From positions 32,001-96,000 of the forward strand of contig BTVY01000022.1 of the NCBI GenBank assembly GCA_045863335.1: DNA of 64,000 bases, given 5' to 3'. The stretch is from Candidatus Hydrogenedentota bacterium (GTDB lineage: Bacteria; Hydrogenedentota; Hydrogenedentia; Hydrogenedentales; SLHB01). The notes below the pieces were generated by a model. That model did no database searches and was not told the DNA's origin. It saw nothing but the letters and a program-made list of their open reading frames with translations. A program made the position numbers and the translations under genes. Positions 5,444 to 35,998 of the stretch are shown one piece after another; position 1 is the first letter of the stretch; every line of letters starts with the position of its first letter.

Positions 5444-6268
5444 ATGCCAACCCTGAATCCGCCGAAGAGCAAGTTCGTGCAATACATTCTCAAATGCCTG
5501 CGGCGGACCATGGTCAAGTATCAATACAACTACGTGAATCATCTCGATCGCGAGGACCAGCAGATCGCGCTGATGAACTACGGCTATGTGCCGCTGGACG
5601 AAGACGACCGTGTGCCCGTGCTGGAAGATGTCGACGAGCGGGATCGCTGCGCGTTGCAGCTCTATCACGCGGTGGCCGGTGCCGTCGACTTGACCGGCAA
5701 AGACGTGCTCGAGATCGGCTGCGGACGCGGCGGCGGGGCTGCCTATATCGCCACACATTTGGGGCCGCGCTCCGTTCTCGCCGTGGACCTGTGCAAGAGC
5801 AGCGTCGCCTATTGTGACTCACGATACTCCATAGAAAACCTGCGCTTCGCACAAGGCGATGCGGAAGCGTTGACGTTGCCGGACGAGAGTTTTGACGCCA
5901 TCGTCAACGTCGAGTCTTCGCACTGCTACAACAAGATCGACGTGTTTCTCGCCGGGGTGTTTCGCGTGCTGCGTCCCGGAGGCCACTTCCTGTTCGCCGA
6001 CTTCCGCATTCAGGACGCGCTGACGCGGTTCGCCGAACGGTTAAACGAAACCGGATTCGAGATCGTCGAGAACGTCTCCATCAACGCCAACGTCTTCGCC
6101 GCCCTCGAACGCGAGAGCGACCGCAAGCGGGAGTACATCCTCTCCAAGGTCCCGCGCAGCCGTCATATCCAGTTCTTCATGTTCGCGGGCGTTGAAGGCA
6201 CGGAGATGTACAACGGTGTACGCGACGGCACGGTGCAGTACCGCCGCTTCGTCGCGCGCAAACCGTAG
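5444..6268 (+). CDS. Class I SAM-dependent methyltransferase
   Basis: VLEIGCGRGGG motif I, GDAEAL, NVESSHCY, RVLRPGG. Confidence 0.9.
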   Translation: MPTLNPPKSKFVQYILKCLRRTMVKYQYNYVNHLDREDQQIALMNYGYVPLDEDDRVPVLEDVDERDRCALQLYHAVAGAVDLTGKDVLEIGCGRGGGAAYIATHLGPRSVLAVDLCKSSVAYCDSRYSIENLRFAQGDAEALTLPDESFDAIVNVESSHCYNKIDVFLAGVFRVLRPGGHFLFADFRIQDALTRFAERLNETGFEIVENVSINANVFAALERESDRKREYILSKVPRSRHIQFFMFAGVEGTEMYNGVRDGTVQYRRFVARKP

Positions 6269-27770: not shown

Positions 27771-27950
27771 ATGAGTCATGTAAAACGGGTGACCAAAGTG
27801 AAGCAGACTCCGGCACTGGCGGCAGGCGGAGATATTGCGGACTGCTTCAGGGGGTTCATCAATGGCGAGTACCCGCTTTTCGGTGTGCCGAGCTTCCTGG
27901 ACTGTGTGAAGTGCTCCAAAGGCGGCGGTAGCTGCGCCGAGCCTGAATAA
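27771..27950 (+). CDS. Small leader-family peptide D (59 aa, Cys-rich core)
   Basis: GGAGGGAG RBS; MSHVKRVTKVKQTPALA-AGGDIADCFRGFINGEYPLFGVPSFLDCVKCSKGGGSCAEPE; own promoter and terminator. Confidence 0.75.
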   Translation: MSHVKRVTKVKQTPALAAGGDIADCFRGFINGEYPLFGVPSFLDCVKCSKGGGSCAEPE

Positions 27951-32393: not shown

Positions 32394-32540
32394 CAAGCCC
32401 GTCATTGCGGCTCGCTTGGCGAATGGCCCGGCGTTACCGTACACTCATGGTATTGAGTGCGGCTGTCGGGTCGATTTTCAGGGATTCCAACTACTTGTGA
32501 TGTTTGGCAAAACGGGCTGTATTTATGGTGAGACCGGAAC

Positions 32541-33182
32541 GTGGCAACGAAACCTCAAGGTCAGCGTAACCCGTTACCGGGTATGGACTACCGTTTGAGT
32601 ACCGAATCTCAAACGGATGAGGAACTGATGTGCCTGCTCTGCGACGGCACGGCGGATGCCCTCGGCACGCTGGTCCATCGGTACCAGAATGACATTTTCA
32701 GATTCTGTCTCCACTACGTGCGGGATGTGGAACGGGCCCGGGAAATGGCCCAGGAAACCTTCATTCGCGTGTATGTGGCGCGGGCGCGGTTCGATGCGAG
32801 CCGCAAGTTTCGGCCCTGGGTGTTGTGCATCGCGCGCAACCTCTGTTTGAACGAATTGAAGCGCAAGAAGGCGGTTCCCATGGAATCGCTCGAAGAATAC
32901 GCGAGTTCGGCCCGCGAAGATACCGGTGAGGTATTGCAGTCGCCGTCCGATGGCCCCGACGGGCTGTTGATGACGGCGGAACGATACGAACTGCTGGCGG
33001 AAGCCTTGGCTTCGCTGGATGAAGAATCGAGGGAGATTGTCACGCTCCGTTTCTTCGAACGGATGCAGGCACGGGACATCGCCGAGATTGTCGGCAGCAC
33101 CGAGGGCGCGGTGCGGACTCGGTTGCACCGAATCCTGAAGTCGTTGCGGGACGTGTATCAATCGGCAAAGGACGACTTGTGA
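32541..33182 (+). CDS. ECF-family RNA polymerase sigma factor
   Basis: TDEELM, AQETFIRVY, FRPWVLCIARNLCLNELKR, EIVGSTEGAVRTRLHR; start may be the ATG at 32583. Confidence 0.92.
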   Translation: MATKPQGQRNPLPGMDYRLSTESQTDEELMCLLCDGTADALGTLVHRYQNDIFRFCLHYVRDVERAREMAQETFIRVYVARARFDASRKFRPWVLCIARNLCLNELKRKKAVPMESLEEYASSAREDTGEVLQSPSDGPDGLLMTAERYELLAEALASLDEESREIVTLRFFERMQARDIAEIVGSTEGAVRTRLHRILKSLRDVYQSAKDDL

Positions 33183-34762
33183 ACACTGGGGAATTGGAAA
33201 GAATCCAGGATGAGTTAATCGCTCTCCTGGAGGGCGAGTTGAGCCCTGAAGACACGATGCGCGTGGAAGCGCGGATCGCGTCGTCAGAGGCCTATCGCCG
33301 GGAGCTTTCCTGGCTCAGGGCCGCCCACGCGGACCTCGATGCCATGGGCCGCGCCTTCGCATCGCAGTCCCCCCAAGTGGACCTCGTTCAGACGGTGATG
33401 AGCACCATCTCGGAAGCCGGCCGGCCCAAGCTCGTTTCCATCGACGCGGAGCGCGCGCGACGCCGCGAACGCGGCCGCACCTGGCTTGGCGTGGCCGCCG
33501 CGGCCGCCGTTATTCTCGGCGCCGTCGGATACCTGATCTACGCCGCCATGCCCCCGGCCCCTGTCGACGGGCCTGGTTCCAAAGAACAACTTGCAGGCCC
33601 CGGAAGCGATACCCCCGTCGTACCCGGCGCACCGGATTACGAATCTCTTGAGGAATCCGACACCGAACTTGCGCGCCAACGCAAGGAGTTTCTGGAGAAA
33701 CGGCAGAAATTGAACGACGACGTAGAGTTGGCTTTGTCCGGCGGCACGATTGAAGAAACCGAACGGCCAGTACTCGATGCTCCAAGCATGGACGAGATTC
33801 TTACCGCGCGCCGGGATGCGTCGGATGACCGGCGGGGAATTTCCCGCCTGGTGCAATGGGCATCGCTCAAACGTGAGCAAGCCCTCGAACTCGCGCAAGA
33901 TCCCGATTCGTCTCCCCAAGTTATTGTGGGTGCAGCCGAGTCGTTGACGGCCCAGGAGGCCGCGCAGGTCTTGCTCACGGTCGTCGGGCAGAACCCGGAG
34001 GACCCCTACGCACGGTTGGAACTCGCCCAGGCGTACGATGAAGCTGAAGAGCCGGGTACCGAAGCGGAAGCGATGGGACAATTGCCGACGCTCTATACCC
34101 TGGACCCGGATAACGCATTGCCCTACTACCTCGAAGCCAAGCTTCGGCTCGAGCAGAATGACCTCGCGGGAGCGCTTGAAGCGCTACGCATCGCGCAGAG
34201 CCTCCCCAAGGCCAGCGCCTACTCCCTGGAGTCGGCCTTGGCGAGGGCGGAAGCGCTTATCGCAAGCGGGCTTCCGGCCGATGAAGCCAAGCTGGTTTCC
34301 GCCCTGACCGCGGGGATGGATCAGTACAATTTCCTTTGCGATCTCGGAAAGAATCTGCTAGAATACGGCCAAGACTATATGGCGGTAGGGGATTACGACA
34401 CCGCCGAAGACATCTTTGAGGCCGTGCAGCGGTTGGGCCAGCAGGCGGAGGAAGGGGCATCTTTCTCTCAAGAGCAGTTAGCCGGTCTAGACATGCAAGC
34501 AGCCGCAATCGATGTGTTGGAAGAGCTTTACACGGCAATTGAATCGACTGAGGGAATCGATCAGCTTGCAACGCAGACGCGCGACCTCGTCGCCAGTATC
34601 GACCAGCTGAGCGGGTTCTTCGACGCGCTGGATCAACTGTTCTTCAGCGAGGAAAGCTCCGATTTCTTCAACATGATTTCCGGGTGGATTCTGGAGTCCG
34701 GAGACCTCGCGCTCTTCGACTACCTCGAGGAGATGGGGATCTCCCTCACCGGCGCCCAGTAG
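33179..34762 (+). CDS. Anti-sigma factor with TM helix and large acidic TPR-like extracytoplasmic domain
   Basis: ELIALLEGEL N-terminus; TM WLGVAAAAAVILGAVGYLIY; TPR-like NPEDPYARLELAQAY and LDPDNALPYYLEAKL; GTGA overlap with the sigma gene. Confidence 0.8.
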   Translation: MNTGELERIQDELIALLEGELSPEDTMRVEARIASSEAYRRELSWLRAAHADLDAMGRAFASQSPQVDLVQTVMSTISEAGRPKLVSIDAERARRRERGRTWLGVAAAAAVILGAVGYLIYAAMPPAPVDGPGSKEQLAGPGSDTPVVPGAPDYESLEESDTELARQRKEFLEKRQKLNDDVELALSGGTIEETERPVLDAPSMDEILTARRDASDDRRGISRLVQWASLKREQALELAQDPDSSPQVIVGAAESLTAQEAAQVLLTVVGQNPEDPYARLELAQAYDEAEEPGTEAEAMGQLPTLYTLDPDNALPYYLEAKLRLEQNDLAGALEALRIAQSLPKASAYSLESALARAEALIASGLPADEAKLVSALTAGMDQYNFLCDLGKNLLEYGQDYMAVGDYDTAEDIFEAVQRLGQQAEEGASFSQEQLAGLDMQAAAIDVLEELYTAIESTEGIDQLATQTRDLVASIDQLSGFFDALDQLFFSEESSDFFNMISGWILESGDLALFDYLEEMGISLTGAQ

Positions 34763-34801: not shown

Positions 34802-34830
34802 TTGCTTATTGCGATCAATTCGTTCACAAT
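34802..34830 (+). promoter_or_regulatory. Possible sigma70-type promoter of the peptide array
   Basis: TTGCTT-N17-CACAAT in an AT-richer stretch. Confidence 0.4.
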
Positions 34831-34926: not shown

Positions 34927-35079
34927 ATGAAGCATGTGAAGGTGCTGTCGACCGAAAAGCCCGTGTGCGCCGAACAAGTCGCGTGGGTGGAGTTCAAGAA
35001 CATTTTTGGGCCGCTCAAGTTGCGTCCTGAGCAACAGAATTGGCTCGTCGCATTGATTGACAACTGGCTGCAGAGCTAG
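34927..35079 (+). CDS. Small leader-family peptide A (50 aa; not in ORF track)
   Basis: GGAGGTGA RBS; MKHVKVLSTEKPVCA-EQVAWVEFKNIFGPLKLRPEQQNWLVALIDNWLQS. Confidence 0.8.
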   Translation: MKHVKVLSTEKPVCAEQVAWVEFKNIFGPLKLRPEQQNWLVALIDNWLQS

Positions 35080-35256
35080 TCATTCGACCAGTGAGACATC
35101 CCGTGAGGGTACATGCGGAAGGAGAGATGGAGAGGATAGCTCCTGTATCTATCCATTCCAACGCTTCCGCGAACGAAGCTCCTGTTCACAACGGATTGGA
35201 ACGTTACAACCCATAGCTCTGTGCAATGGGAGTGTTTCGCGAAAGGGTAAACGACA

Positions 35257-35415
35257 ATGAAACACGTTCGTAAGATATCGAAGAATGCGCCGGTGACCGC
35301 TTGGTGGTTCGGCTGGTTCGGTAAGGGCGGTGAGCTGAAGGGTGGTACCGCTAAGGTTGACTACATCAATCAGCTTTGGTTCACCAACGGCTCCTTGGAT
35401 CCCCGAGACGTATAA
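35257..35415 (+). CDS. Small leader-family peptide B (52 aa; not in ORF track)
   Basis: GAAAGGGT RBS; MKHVRKISKNAPVTA-WWFGWFGKGGELKGGTAKVDYINQLWFTNGSLDPRDV. Confidence 0.8.
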   Translation: MKHVRKISKNAPVTAWWFGWFGKGGELKGGTAKVDYINQLWFTNGSLDPRDV

Positions 35416-35546
35416 GCGCCCCTCCACACGTGTCCGCTCGCCGCGGACGCAACGGTCAGCGTGACACCGTTCCGCTGACGCGCGAACGAAGGGGTACGAA
35501 ACTGCGTTTTAACTGGGGACACAAACCTTAAGGAGGTTTAAGGATC

Positions 35547-35756
35547 ATGAAGCACATCGGTCGCGTTTCGAAGGCGCTTCCGGCCACCGCATATGAGGTG
35601 CCGAGAAACTATTTCGACATTATGAGCTGGACCGACATCGTCGTCGTCATCGGCCTTACCATGGAGAAGTGGTGGGGTTGGCTGTTCGGCGGTTACCTGC
35701 TGCCCGAAGGGCTGCTGGGCGACCGGAACGGCAACGGCGTCATCGACGGCCAGTAA
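35547..35756 (+). CDS. Small leader-family peptide C (69 aa)
   Basis: AAGGAGGT RBS; MKHIGRVSKALPATA-YEVPRNYFDIMSWTDIVVVIGLTMEKWWGWLFGGYLLPEGLLGDRNGNGVIDGQ. Confidence 0.85.
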   Translation: MKHIGRVSKALPATAYEVPRNYFDIMSWTDIVVVIGLTMEKWWGWLFGGYLLPEGLLGDRNGNGVIDGQ

Positions 35757-35815
35757 GATCTCGAATTCAACGTGGTGGTTGTGCGCAACCCGCGCACGCC
35801 CCCGTCAGAAGTGGT

Positions 35816-35854
35816 GGCGGACCACAGCGATATGCTGCGGTCCGTCGTTTTTTT
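35816..35854 (+). terminator. Intrinsic terminator closing the peptide array
   Basis: GGCGGACCACAGC-GATAT-GCTGCGGTCCGTC then G and a T7 run. Confidence 0.75.
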
Positions 35855-35998
35855 ACCGGGCTATTCTTTCGCCAAACACTACGCCCTCGCGCTAGAAGCC
35901 CCATCGTGCCACTCTACCGTCTTGTTGCCTGCGCTGTCTCTATTGTCCCCGTCGGCCCAACGCCGGCTTTGTCTCCTTCGGAGCCATCCCAACTCGGA

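Follow-up and report, generated by a model that had tools for sequence, protein, structure and literature searches.

The three small genes that follow a sigma/anti-sigma gene pair of the extracytoplasmic function (ECF) type in a Candidatus Hydrogenedentota bacterium are best explained as encoding precursor peptides of a Hydrogenedentota-wide family, whose members share the leader M-K-H-[VI]-x-x-[LIV]-[ST]-K-x2-3-P-x-x-A and differ in their cores. These genes, here named pep1, pep2 and pep3, lie in a window of 64,000 nucleotides (contig C22, positions 32001-96000) of a 6.75-Mb assembly (105 contigs, 60% GC, 99.4% complete). The reading that we put forward, and regard as moderately probable, is that the leader would be a handle for a CteB-like protein with a recognition element (RRE) of the kind found in the maturation of peptides that are ribosomally synthesised and then modified post-translationally (RiPPs). 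The gene cluster of this protein, located on contig C15, would modify, trim and export the peptides, and the trio in the window would be served in trans.

A leader family with conserved cores

The array and the terminator that closes it are the following.

34927-35079, + strand: pep1, 50 aa, start MKHVKVLSTEKPVCA, MKH leader and core AWVE(F/L)KNIFG...WLVALIDNWLQS
35257-35415, + strand: pep2, 52 aa, start MKHVRKISKNAPVTA, MKH leader and core with WWFGWFG and Y(I/V)N.LW...GSLDP.D
35547-35756, + strand: pep3, 69 aa, start MKHIGRVSKALPATA, MKH leader and hydrophobic Trp-rich core, end DRNGNGVIDGQ
35815-35857, + strand: intrinsic terminator, a 33-nt hairpin (35815-35847) followed by a U-run, fold z -2.9

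All three products start with M-K-H-[VI]-x-x-[VIL]-S-x3-P-x-x-A. The first-pass annotation of this DNA had described three open reading frames (ORFs) of 50, 52 and 69 aa with a common start, a good ribosome binding site each, unrelated aromatic-rich cores and a closing terminator, and most of this description holds. Specifically, the ORFs, their start and the terminator were found as described, and F, W and Y together account for 5/35, 8/37 and 9/54 residues of the pep1, pep2 and pep3 cores, respectively. The Shine-Dalgarno sequences are strong for pep1 (GGGAGG) and pep3 (AAGGAGG), whereas pep2 is preceded only by a weak AAAGGG, which contains none of the words GGAG, GAGG or AGGA. As for the cores, pairwise BLASTP from residue 16 to the end gave no match of pep1 to pep2 or pep3, while the latter two share a 14-residue match of the WW(F)GW(L)FGG type and nothing else (E 0.015 in a four-sequence database), so that the claim of unrelated cores is correct for pep1 and too strong for the other two.

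Regular-expression and profile searches recovered approximately 23 small genes with the MKH start in this genome: five on contig C1, four on C22, three on C15, two each on C3 and C37, and one each on C6, C8, C16, C30, C31, C47 and C56. Other small ORFs that start in this way were already retrieved with a profile built from only 6 leaders. When 103 distinct leaders are aligned (A4), M1 and H3 show no variation (His3 in 103/103), K2 and A15 reach at least 90%, and no conservation is seen past A15, exactly where similarity had been said to end. With the profile derived from A4, whose training set contained this genome's own copies, the genome gave 20 ATG-started ORFs that score at least 10 bits, and the reversed genome gave 0; the further leader matches that the first-pass annotation had named as a check are thus present. 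GGAG, GAGG or AGGA lies 4-18 nt upstream of 21/23 family genes, compared to 11% of random ATGs. Different codons specify the conserved residues of the leader (for His3, CAC in 16 genes and CAT in 7; for position 4, ten codons in all), and therefore the constraint acts on the peptide.

The family cores are of very different types, being Lys/Pro-rich, amphipathic or hydrophobic, or Cys-paired, and His makes up only 0.2% of their residues. The pep1, pep2 and pep3 cores contain 0 Cys each, and 78 of the 103 family cores contain none; the maximum is 4, in agreement with the earlier remark that a six-Cys motif is lacking. Among the 25 Cys-bearing cores, which include orthologues that are not independent, 22 have 2 or 4 Cys, and these paired counts may be taken as a sign of peptide export.

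Pfam matched none of the three window peptides, and NCBIfam gave no precursor-family match to these three or to 20 paralogues at E up to 10, a single chance OXA match aside. In addition, pep2 had no usable match in the ESM Atlas, and a homologue search with the paralogue alignment yielded nothing beyond 19 close orthologues, all unnamed. A match to a described family, which the first-pass annotation had named as a refutation, was thus not seen in these searches. All together, the sequences indicate a genuine family of small coding genes, in which a common N-terminal leader-like segment precedes different cores.

The cores had also been called hypervariable, and this part of the first picture has to be given up. 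Orthologues of pep1 at 14 other loci carry the core motifs AW(V/I).LK...WL...(I/V)DNWLQ. Orthologues of pep2, of which P0014 and P0018 are close relatives, carry Y(I/V)..L....GSLDP.D, and in the alignment of 12 of them (A2) M1, H3, K9, P12, A15, Y36 and L40 are invariant. Orthologues of pep3 occur at loci L003, L004, L006 and L105 and, more distantly, at L104, L107, L108 and L113, with the core PG(L/I)FG.NE(L/I).D in the more distant genomes. The ratio of nonsynonymous to synonymous differences per site (pN/pS) is 0.09-0.15 for the pep1 core, at pS 0.49-0.85, and 0.13 for the pep3 core in the comparison with L003. On these figures each core type is conserved among orthologues under purifying selection, and codon-level conservation, the other check that had been suggested, is evident from the pep1 core ratio of about 0.1 as well as from the varied codons for conserved residues. 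Within the first 15 codons of pep1, pS is 0.09-0.19, compared to 0.49-0.63 for the core (against L003, L004 and L105, with only about 10 synonymous sites), a hint that the 5' coding region may be under additional constraint.

A CteB-like protein as candidate reader

A whole-genome scan with TIGR03974, the model of the maturase of SCIFF peptides, gave sub-threshold matches only: the best scored 63 bits (contig C27) and a protein on contig C15 scored 56, against a cut-off of 425. The C15 match lies 4.6 kb downstream of two MKH genes and corresponds to the following gene.

L085:1424-3346 (contig C15), - strand: CteB-like protein, 641 aa, recognised by PDB sequence match and fold match

The only PDB sequence match of this protein is 5WGG_A/5WHY (E 8.6e-19), which spans residues 7-431 and thus includes the N-terminal domain. 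As reported in PMC6231123, 5WGG is the crystal structure of CteB, a SCIFF maturase, in which the CteA leader is bound to the RRE as a beta-strand, and leader binding of this type by the N-terminal RRE of the maturase is given for SCIFF precursors in PMC6231123 and PMC8326336. Residues 7-100 of the 641-aa protein align with residues 7-100 of CteB. An AlphaFold model computed with 18 orthologues (mean pLDDT 79.9) begins with three strands (8-12, 15-19, 26-29) and three helices (31-37, 45-52, 58-74), which is the arrangement of an RRE. The top Foldseek match of the model is again 5WGG_A (E 1.5e-17, TM 0.69 normalised by target), followed by the GNAT acetyltransferases SpeG, ArsN and RimL over residues ~475-641, pointing to a C-terminal GNAT domain.

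In an NCBIfam hmmscan the ScfB-related, SCIFF, Nif11-rSAM (radical S-adenosylmethionine, rSAM), PapB and QhpD models rank first, all far below their cut-offs (full-length scores of 73 vs 425 bits and 80 vs 855 bits). Public databases name the members 'SPASM domain-containing protein', 'GNAT family N-acetyltransferase' or 'uncharacterized' and list them almost only from metagenome-assembled genomes of Hydrogenedentes; of the 8000 candidates scored, at least 302 proteins match the family with an E-value of 1e-10 or better. Cysteines 24, 26, 29, 394, 397, 403 and 426 are invariant in 18/18 orthologues, and position 170 is Cys in 12/18. The first three form an invariant CFCFEC motif on RRE strand 3, the strand that binds the leader in CteB; it is a speculation that this motif and the invariant leader His3 could build a shared metal site.

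On the minus strand of contig C15, the cluster consists, in order, of two MKH peptide genes, three GNAT genes (Acetyltransf_3, Acetyltransf_4), a gene for a CPBP/Rce1-like intramembrane protease, an ATPase gene of the ATP-binding cassette (ABC) type (PF00005, 1.6e-28; best NCBIfam model, the DrrA subfamily), a gene whose product has seven hydrophobic segments and matches nothing in Pfam, and the gene for the CteB-like protein. We surveyed this locus and the surroundings of the orthologue in 20 further genomes that belong to 11 GTDB families. The CteB-like and permease-like genes are found in 21/21 loci, the GNAT and CPBP genes in 20/21 (L136 being the exception), and the same order is kept in 20/21. 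Leader ORFs precede the cluster in 18/21 loci by profile, with 1-4 leader peptides per locus; at L141 two GTG-started leader ORFs can be seen by eye, and L135 has a related hydrophobic peptide with no evident MKH start. One of the cluster peptides, whose core is RADAF(T/S)DF.NA.WRAW.DF.Y.KKNE, is conserved across the order. The family therefore combines the generic features of RiPP precursors, namely a conserved leader, a variable core and cognate copies beside a candidate leader-binding protein, a protease and a transporter.

Distribution in the phylum and modelling of the complex

A search with the first paralogue alignment appeared to restrict the leader to one GTDB family (21/24 genomes, vs 2/16 in the rest of the order), a pattern that reflected limited sensitivity. 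The 103-leader profile, at E 0.01 or better, detected the leader in 108/135 Hydrogenedentota genomes (71/86 of high quality). The CteB-like protein, nearly always in single copy, was found in 123/135 (83/86 of high quality). Cross-tabulation of the 135 genomes, in which seven genomes with no hit were inferred from the family tallies of the leader search, gave 107 with both, 16 with the reader only, 1 with the leader only and 11 with neither. In family f3 the leader occurs in 5/5 genomes with the reader and in 0/9 without it.

Co-folding was carried out with residues 1-440 of the CteB-like protein (alignment A3) and pep2 (alignment A2), together with three controls. The ipSAE interface score was 0.51 (runs of 0.57, 0.45 and 0.51), compared to 0.01 for the best of the three controls, a result classed as 'weak support': the mark is reached by 58/80 solved complexes and 2/110 mismatched pairs, and scores of 0.60 or under comprise only 7 of the 80 solved complexes and both mismatches that passed. 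The runs share at least 40% of their contacts, and the pLDDT of the partner is 39-40.

Association with an ECF sigma/anti-sigma operon

Upstream of pep1 the window contains two genes on the same strand.

32541-33182, + strand: ECF-type sigma factor gene, first gene of the operon, Pfam Sigma70_r2 and r4
33179-34762, + strand: anti-sigma factor gene, 527 aa, start overlapping the sigma stop

The sigma factor scores 103 bits with the sigma70-ECF model TIGR02937 of NCBIfam (cut-off 42.9). Residues 19-124 of the downstream product match the NCBIfam anti-sigma model NF052375 (E 4e-10, below the family cut-off), and a single hydrophobic segment is found at residues 101-119 (Kyte-Doolittle). Its C-terminal part of ~400 aa shows weak TPR matches, with Pfam TPR_19 at E 3.8e-5 just below the cut-off. 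With sigma regions 2 and 4 only and a co-oriented anti-sigma gene, the pair has the predicted make-up of an ECF sigma factor and its membrane anti-sigma factor. Downstream of the array lies a convergent UvrD helicase gene.

The linkage of the peptides to this pair, overlooked in the first-pass annotation, is conserved. Orthologues of the sigma factor (59-99% identity) were found at 19 loci in public genomes. Arrays of 2-6 leader peptides follow orthologous sigma/anti-sigma pairs at 9/19 loci, and then at 10/20 further loci; since four loci are common to both sets, approximately 15 distinct sigma-linked peptide loci are known besides the window. Other ECF sigma paralogues adjoin other MKH genes at L090, L109 and L114.

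Two conserved blocks upstream of the sigma gene (32405-32540) are possible promoters: TTGGCG, 16 nt, CGTACACT, and TTGTGATGTTTG...GTAGTAAT. The first of them was not found in front of the peptide genes.

Non-coding elements and transcription of the array

Two further elements lie in the non-coding sequence of the array.

34802-34830, + strand: sigma-70-like promoter candidate 5' of pep1, TTGCTT, 17 nt, CACAAT (consensus scan)
35115-35170, + strand: conserved non-coding hairpin GCGGAAGG...CTTCCGC between pep1 and pep2 (fold of 35080-35260, z -1.9)

The promoter candidate is kept as a block in the window, L003, L004 and L006, while the flanking non-coding sequence diverges. The intergenic hairpin is conserved above the adjoining coding cores in four genomes; its Shine-Dalgarno-like 5' motif GCGGAAGGAG is present in most of the 15 sigma-linked loci, and nothing in Rfam matched it at E up to 1. 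Its possible roles are those of a processing site, a stabilising element or a stand-by site for ribosomes. The terminator hairpin is retained with different stem letters in L003 and L004, and GGTAC words 5' of pep1-3 are not conserved in either locus.

Contigs of the RNA libraries X13, X17 and X20, from three studies, carry a 90-99% identical relative of the locus and extend from inside the anti-sigma gene to 35758-35814; two RNA-library contigs end exactly at 35814, just before the terminator, and library X12 contains pieces of the locus relative. These contigs give a weak hint of transcription of the locus with a 3' end at the terminator, DNA carry-over being possible.

The C-terminus of pep3, DRNGNGVIDGQ (35722-35756), has a counterpart in the L006 orthologue, which ends in DRNGDGSLDS, and is missing in L004 and L105, where the peptide stops earlier. 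This end resembles a dockerin or EF-hand-type calcium loop.

Other candidate readers and known peptide families

An all-against-all BLAST and Pfam analysis of the paralogue neighbours found only generic families (sulfatases, GFO/IDH/MocA, DUF1559, VWA and TPR). Genome scans for RiPP enzymes gave 2 PqqD sites, 6 SPASM sites and 4 C39 sites. The two PqqD (PF05402) sites are on contigs C4 and C13, with none at the 641-aa gene on C15. The C13 gene (L094, 6368-9635) encodes a PqqD-radical SAM-SPASM protein of 470 aa with CNDNCKHC and stands beside a gene for a 616-aa membrane protein, whose C-terminus has a Gly run and then Cys-Ala repeats (GGGGGGGCACACAGCACACACAGGGR). The two look like a separate maturase-substrate pair, and the C13 gene was set aside as a leader reader in view of this apparent substrate of its own. 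The stand-alone PqqD on C4 sits in an unrelated-looking operon, and the SPASM genes on C55, C41, C53 and C27 have no MKH peptide nearby. The Peptidase_C39 domains are all contained in three ORFs of 1600-2200 aa, located on C4 (71795), C88 (4827) and C61 (16712); none is beside an MKH gene, and these ORFs are not typical exporters of the PCAT (peptidase-containing ABC transporter) type.

Known peptide classes were examined as well. SCIFF cores have about six Cys within their C-terminal 45 residues, in the description of PMC8172795. The SCIFF precursor model TIGR03973 matched none of the 20 paralogues or 3 window peptides, and membership in this class was rejected on this ground, on the lack of a six-Cys core and on the lack of a maturase above the family cut-off. 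A double-glycine bacteriocin with a PCAT exporter was rejected as well, as the leaders end in P-x-x-A and no C39 ORF adjoins an MKH gene. The same holds for a Sec, Tat or lipoprotein signal: by inspection, without a predictor, residues 4-15 of the 103 leaders contain K, R, S, T and P and no hydrophobic run, so that the earlier statement that the leader lacks an h-region and a double-Gly stands.

In the literature that could be searched, no description of the system was found, and nothing joined Hydrogenedentes with 'leader peptide', the supplementary files with possible tables of biosynthetic gene clusters being outside this search. Hydrogenedentota combined with 'RiPP' gave no title or abstract on such a system, and neither phylum name occurred together with SPASM, ranthipeptide or precursor peptide among the matches listed.

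Other members of the leader family

The window contains a fourth gene of the family.

27771-27950, + strand: leader-family gene, 59 aa, start MSHVKRVTKVKQTPALA, 4-Cys core (leader profile and regular expression)

Its core is conserved in six database orthologues (P0001, P0005, P0008, P0009, P0011 and P0015), and it most likely represents the fourth leader to which the first-pass annotation alluded. A RecF/SMC-like ATPase gene adjoins it on the opposite strand.

Elsewhere in the genome, L081 (contig C1:103311-122926) carries five MKH peptides of 31-39 aa at genome positions 111311-115018, beside a sulfatase gene, with Lys/Pro-rich cores such as KPVKPKPVKPK. A 2-Cys peptide with the core QD(V/I).C...GG..P...Y.D.KC is present at L092 (contig C47), L102, L103 and L116, and is conserved even in another GTDB family (L102); large BACON/VWA proteins are encoded in synteny with it at L092, L102 and L103, and in L092 a leucine-rich repeat protein precedes it. 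Finally, at L090 (184-6150, contig C37) the ECF sigma paralogue is followed by genes for a 714-aa beta-lactamase-domain protein, a B12-binding radical SAM protein and DUF1963, and then by an MKH peptide at 6019.

Discussion

We propose that the leader would act as a recognition handle by pairing as a beta-strand with the RRE domain of the single-copy 641-aa CteB-like protein, which no longer has the radical-SAM cluster motif and carries a fused GNAT domain. Together with its putative partners, which are two or three GNATs, a CPBP-type intramembrane protease and an ABC-2-type transporter, this protein would bring about modification of the peptides, most likely acetylation, and removal of the leader near Ala15, followed by export or immunity. 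The cleavage after P-x-x-A that had been suggested for this DNA would correspond to the point where conservation stops. The MKH peptides of the cluster itself would be the cognate substrates, while the approximately 20 other MKH genes, the trio included, would supply satellite substrates in trans. Since the trio is the conserved last part of an ECF sigma/anti-sigma operon, the three products would probably be made or sensed within an envelope-signalling circuit. In the table of one review, SCIFF-derived peptides are listed as quorum-sensing factors (PMC8326336); given this listing and the conserved anti-sigma linkage, it is reasonable to suppose that pep1-3 may act in signalling.

What the sequences show is the leader family and its coding nature, the synteny, the homology and domain make-up of the candidate reader, and its occurrence together with the leader. 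What we infer is leader binding, modification, where cleavage takes place, export and a connection to sigma signalling, and several results weigh against these parts of the proposal. In radical SAM enzymes the CX3CX2C motif binds the [4Fe-4S] cluster, as set out in PMC6231123; the motif is missing in 18/18 aligned orthologues of the 641-aa protein, where the CX3CX2C of CteB aligns to Cys-free residues. Because of this absence the protein is not a radical SAM enzyme by the defining motif, and Pfam finds no domain in it, Radical_SAM included, whether in the full length or in the N-terminal 109 residues; it may not be an enzyme of the expected kind. The pass in co-folding may reflect likeness to the CteB-CteA complex, which is already solved, and not binding by this copy. 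The leader profile A4 retrieved no PDB chain at E up to 10, and the link to the SCIFF leader, which itself would begin with MKHIK..., is tentative. Most paralogues, the trio included, lack a processing gene in their vicinity. The reader occurs almost throughout the order and discriminates mainly through family f3; 16 genomes have it with no detected leader, and one genome, G102 (88% complete), has the leader without the reader. The co-occurrence is thus supportive rather than a statistical proof, because related genomes are not independent. Lastly, an ECF-type promoter common to the peptide upstream regions was looked for and no consistent motif was found, several peptide genes having good sigma-70-like promoter hexamers instead.

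Alternatively, the leader might be an export signal only, read by the ABC-2 or another exporter and removed by a peptidase, the products being unmodified bacteriocin- or pheromone-like peptides and the CteB-like protein being irrelevant to the satellites. We consider this unlikely. In its favour, a CPBP protease is encoded in the cognate cluster beside an ABC ATPase and a multi-span membrane protein, several cores resemble unmodified amphipathic or hydrophobic bacteriocins or carry paired Cys, the leader end P-A/V-x-A resembles the c-region of signal peptides, and the CteB-like protein has lost its radical-SAM motif. However, the leader has no hydrophobic h-region, twin-Arg or double-Gly, the C39 domains are confined to the three very long ORFs away from the peptides, no ABC-2/DrrA-type system is known to read N-terminal leaders, and the RRE-bearing protein is strictly syntenic with the peptides. 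It is quite improbable, in our opinion, that a catalytically dead radical-SAM maturase has become a phylum-wide scaffold which recognises the leader through a metal-dependent Cys3-His site, pep1-3 being auto-signals sensed by the anti-sigma factor. Dispersed peptides, dozens in number, would pass from such a scaffold to GNAT acyltransferases, the CPBP protease and the ABC exporter, and the TPR-like periplasmic domain of the anti-sigma factor would sense exported pep1-3, forming a peptide-gated ECF sigma circuit in a diderm phylum that lacks a cultured model.

The conserved N-terminus might instead be a functional part of the mature proteins, either an X-X-His Cu/Ni site of the ATCUN (amino-terminal copper and nickel) type or a docking segment, for example for the anti-sigma factor. 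His3 in every leader and Lys2 in at least 90% of them, the scarcity of His in the cores, the normal retention of Met before Lys, which would leave a free NH2-Met-Lys-His, and the ECF sigma paralogues beside other MKH genes all agree with this idea. Yet an ATCUN site does not need the conservation over 15 residues with S/T8, K9, P12 and A15, and the sharp boundary at A15 as well as the synteny with the protease and the RRE protein speak against it, making this alternative more doubtful still. A nucleotide- or translation-level element in the shared start, such as a 5' coding signal or an mRNA structure, or ORFs without function, would fit the low pS in the first 15 codons of pep1 and the contigs of other organisms that share the Shine-Dalgarno sequence and first codons at 90% identity or more. 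This is already disfavoured and, in our view, scarcely credible, given that paralogues use different codons for the same residues, that pN/pS is well below 1 in leader and core, that core motifs are conserved across genera, and that strong Shine-Dalgarno sequences accompany a leader with 0 matches in the reversed genome.

Among known systems, the closest is that of SCIFF/ranthipeptides (CteA/ScfA with CteB/ScfB), as CteB is both the sole PDB match and the best fold of the 641-aa protein and the best NCBIfam models are ScfB-related. The differences are clear: the Hydrogenedentota protein lacks CX3CX2C, keeps only 4 Cys of the SPASM region and has an extra C-terminal GNAT; the precursors are many and dispersed instead of one adjacent gene, with no six-Cys core; and the phylum is a different one, SCIFF being described from Clostridia in PMC8326336. 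Because the candidate reader is without the radical-SAM motif, the chemistry predicted from its sequence is not ranthipeptide chemistry. The resemblance to SCIFF noticed in the first-pass annotation is thus consistent with the enzyme side, through the CteB homologue, and fails for the peptides by both the TIGR03973 and the six-Cys test; its expectation of a reader encoded elsewhere, possibly with an RRE, now has a concrete candidate on C15, beside a CPBP protease and an ABC transporter, although one devoid of CX3CX2C.

In prochlorosin biosynthesis one enzyme, ProcM, serves about 30 ProcA genes, and the present system is similar in having dozens of dispersed precursors with a common leader and diverse cores and one candidate processing locus elsewhere. 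It differs in its leader of 15 residues, compared to the long Nif11-type leader, in the type of enzyme and in cores that are conserved among orthologues. Class II bacteriocin loci likewise have small cationic or hydrophobic peptides and tandem peptide genes, and their CPBP (Abi/Rce1-like) immunity or processing proteins and ABC transporters may be compared with the CPBP and ABC transporter genes of the cognate cluster; here there is no double-glycine leader and no C39-ABC exporter beside the peptides, and an RRE protein and several GNATs are present. The lantibiotic cluster of microbisporicin is controlled by an ECF sigma/anti-sigma pair, MibX/MibW, and thus offers a precedent for the genetic coupling of such a pair to ribosomal peptide genes. 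In our case the peptide genes come immediately after the anti-sigma gene and biosynthetic genes are absent, the anti-sigma factor has a large TPR-like extracytoplasmic part, and any regulatory link is putative. Unusual within leader-guided peptide maturation is a CteB homologue devoid of the radical-SAM motif, fused to a GNAT domain and present phylum-wide in single copy; also unusual are the 15-residue leader with its invariant His3 and the coupling of the trio to an ECF sigma/anti-sigma pair.

In conclusion, these data point to an apparently undescribed phylum-wide peptide system, for which a recognition tag is defined and a candidate reader named, with approximately 23 peptides per genome in this genus, in the Hydrogenedentota, of which almost no biology has been characterised experimentally. 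If the CteB-like protein does bind the leader, a radical-SAM/SPASM maturase would have dispensed with radical chemistry, kept its peptide-binding role and gained an acyltransferase domain. This would bear on the evolution of RiPP pathways and on genome mining, because tools keyed on radical-SAM motifs or on Pfam PqqD miss the CteB-like protein. In addition, a leader of 15 residues is short enough for a portable tag, and the coupling to an ECF sigma/anti-sigma pair provides a tractable hypothesis of peptide signalling in an uncultured diderm lineage that is common in bioreactors and sludge.

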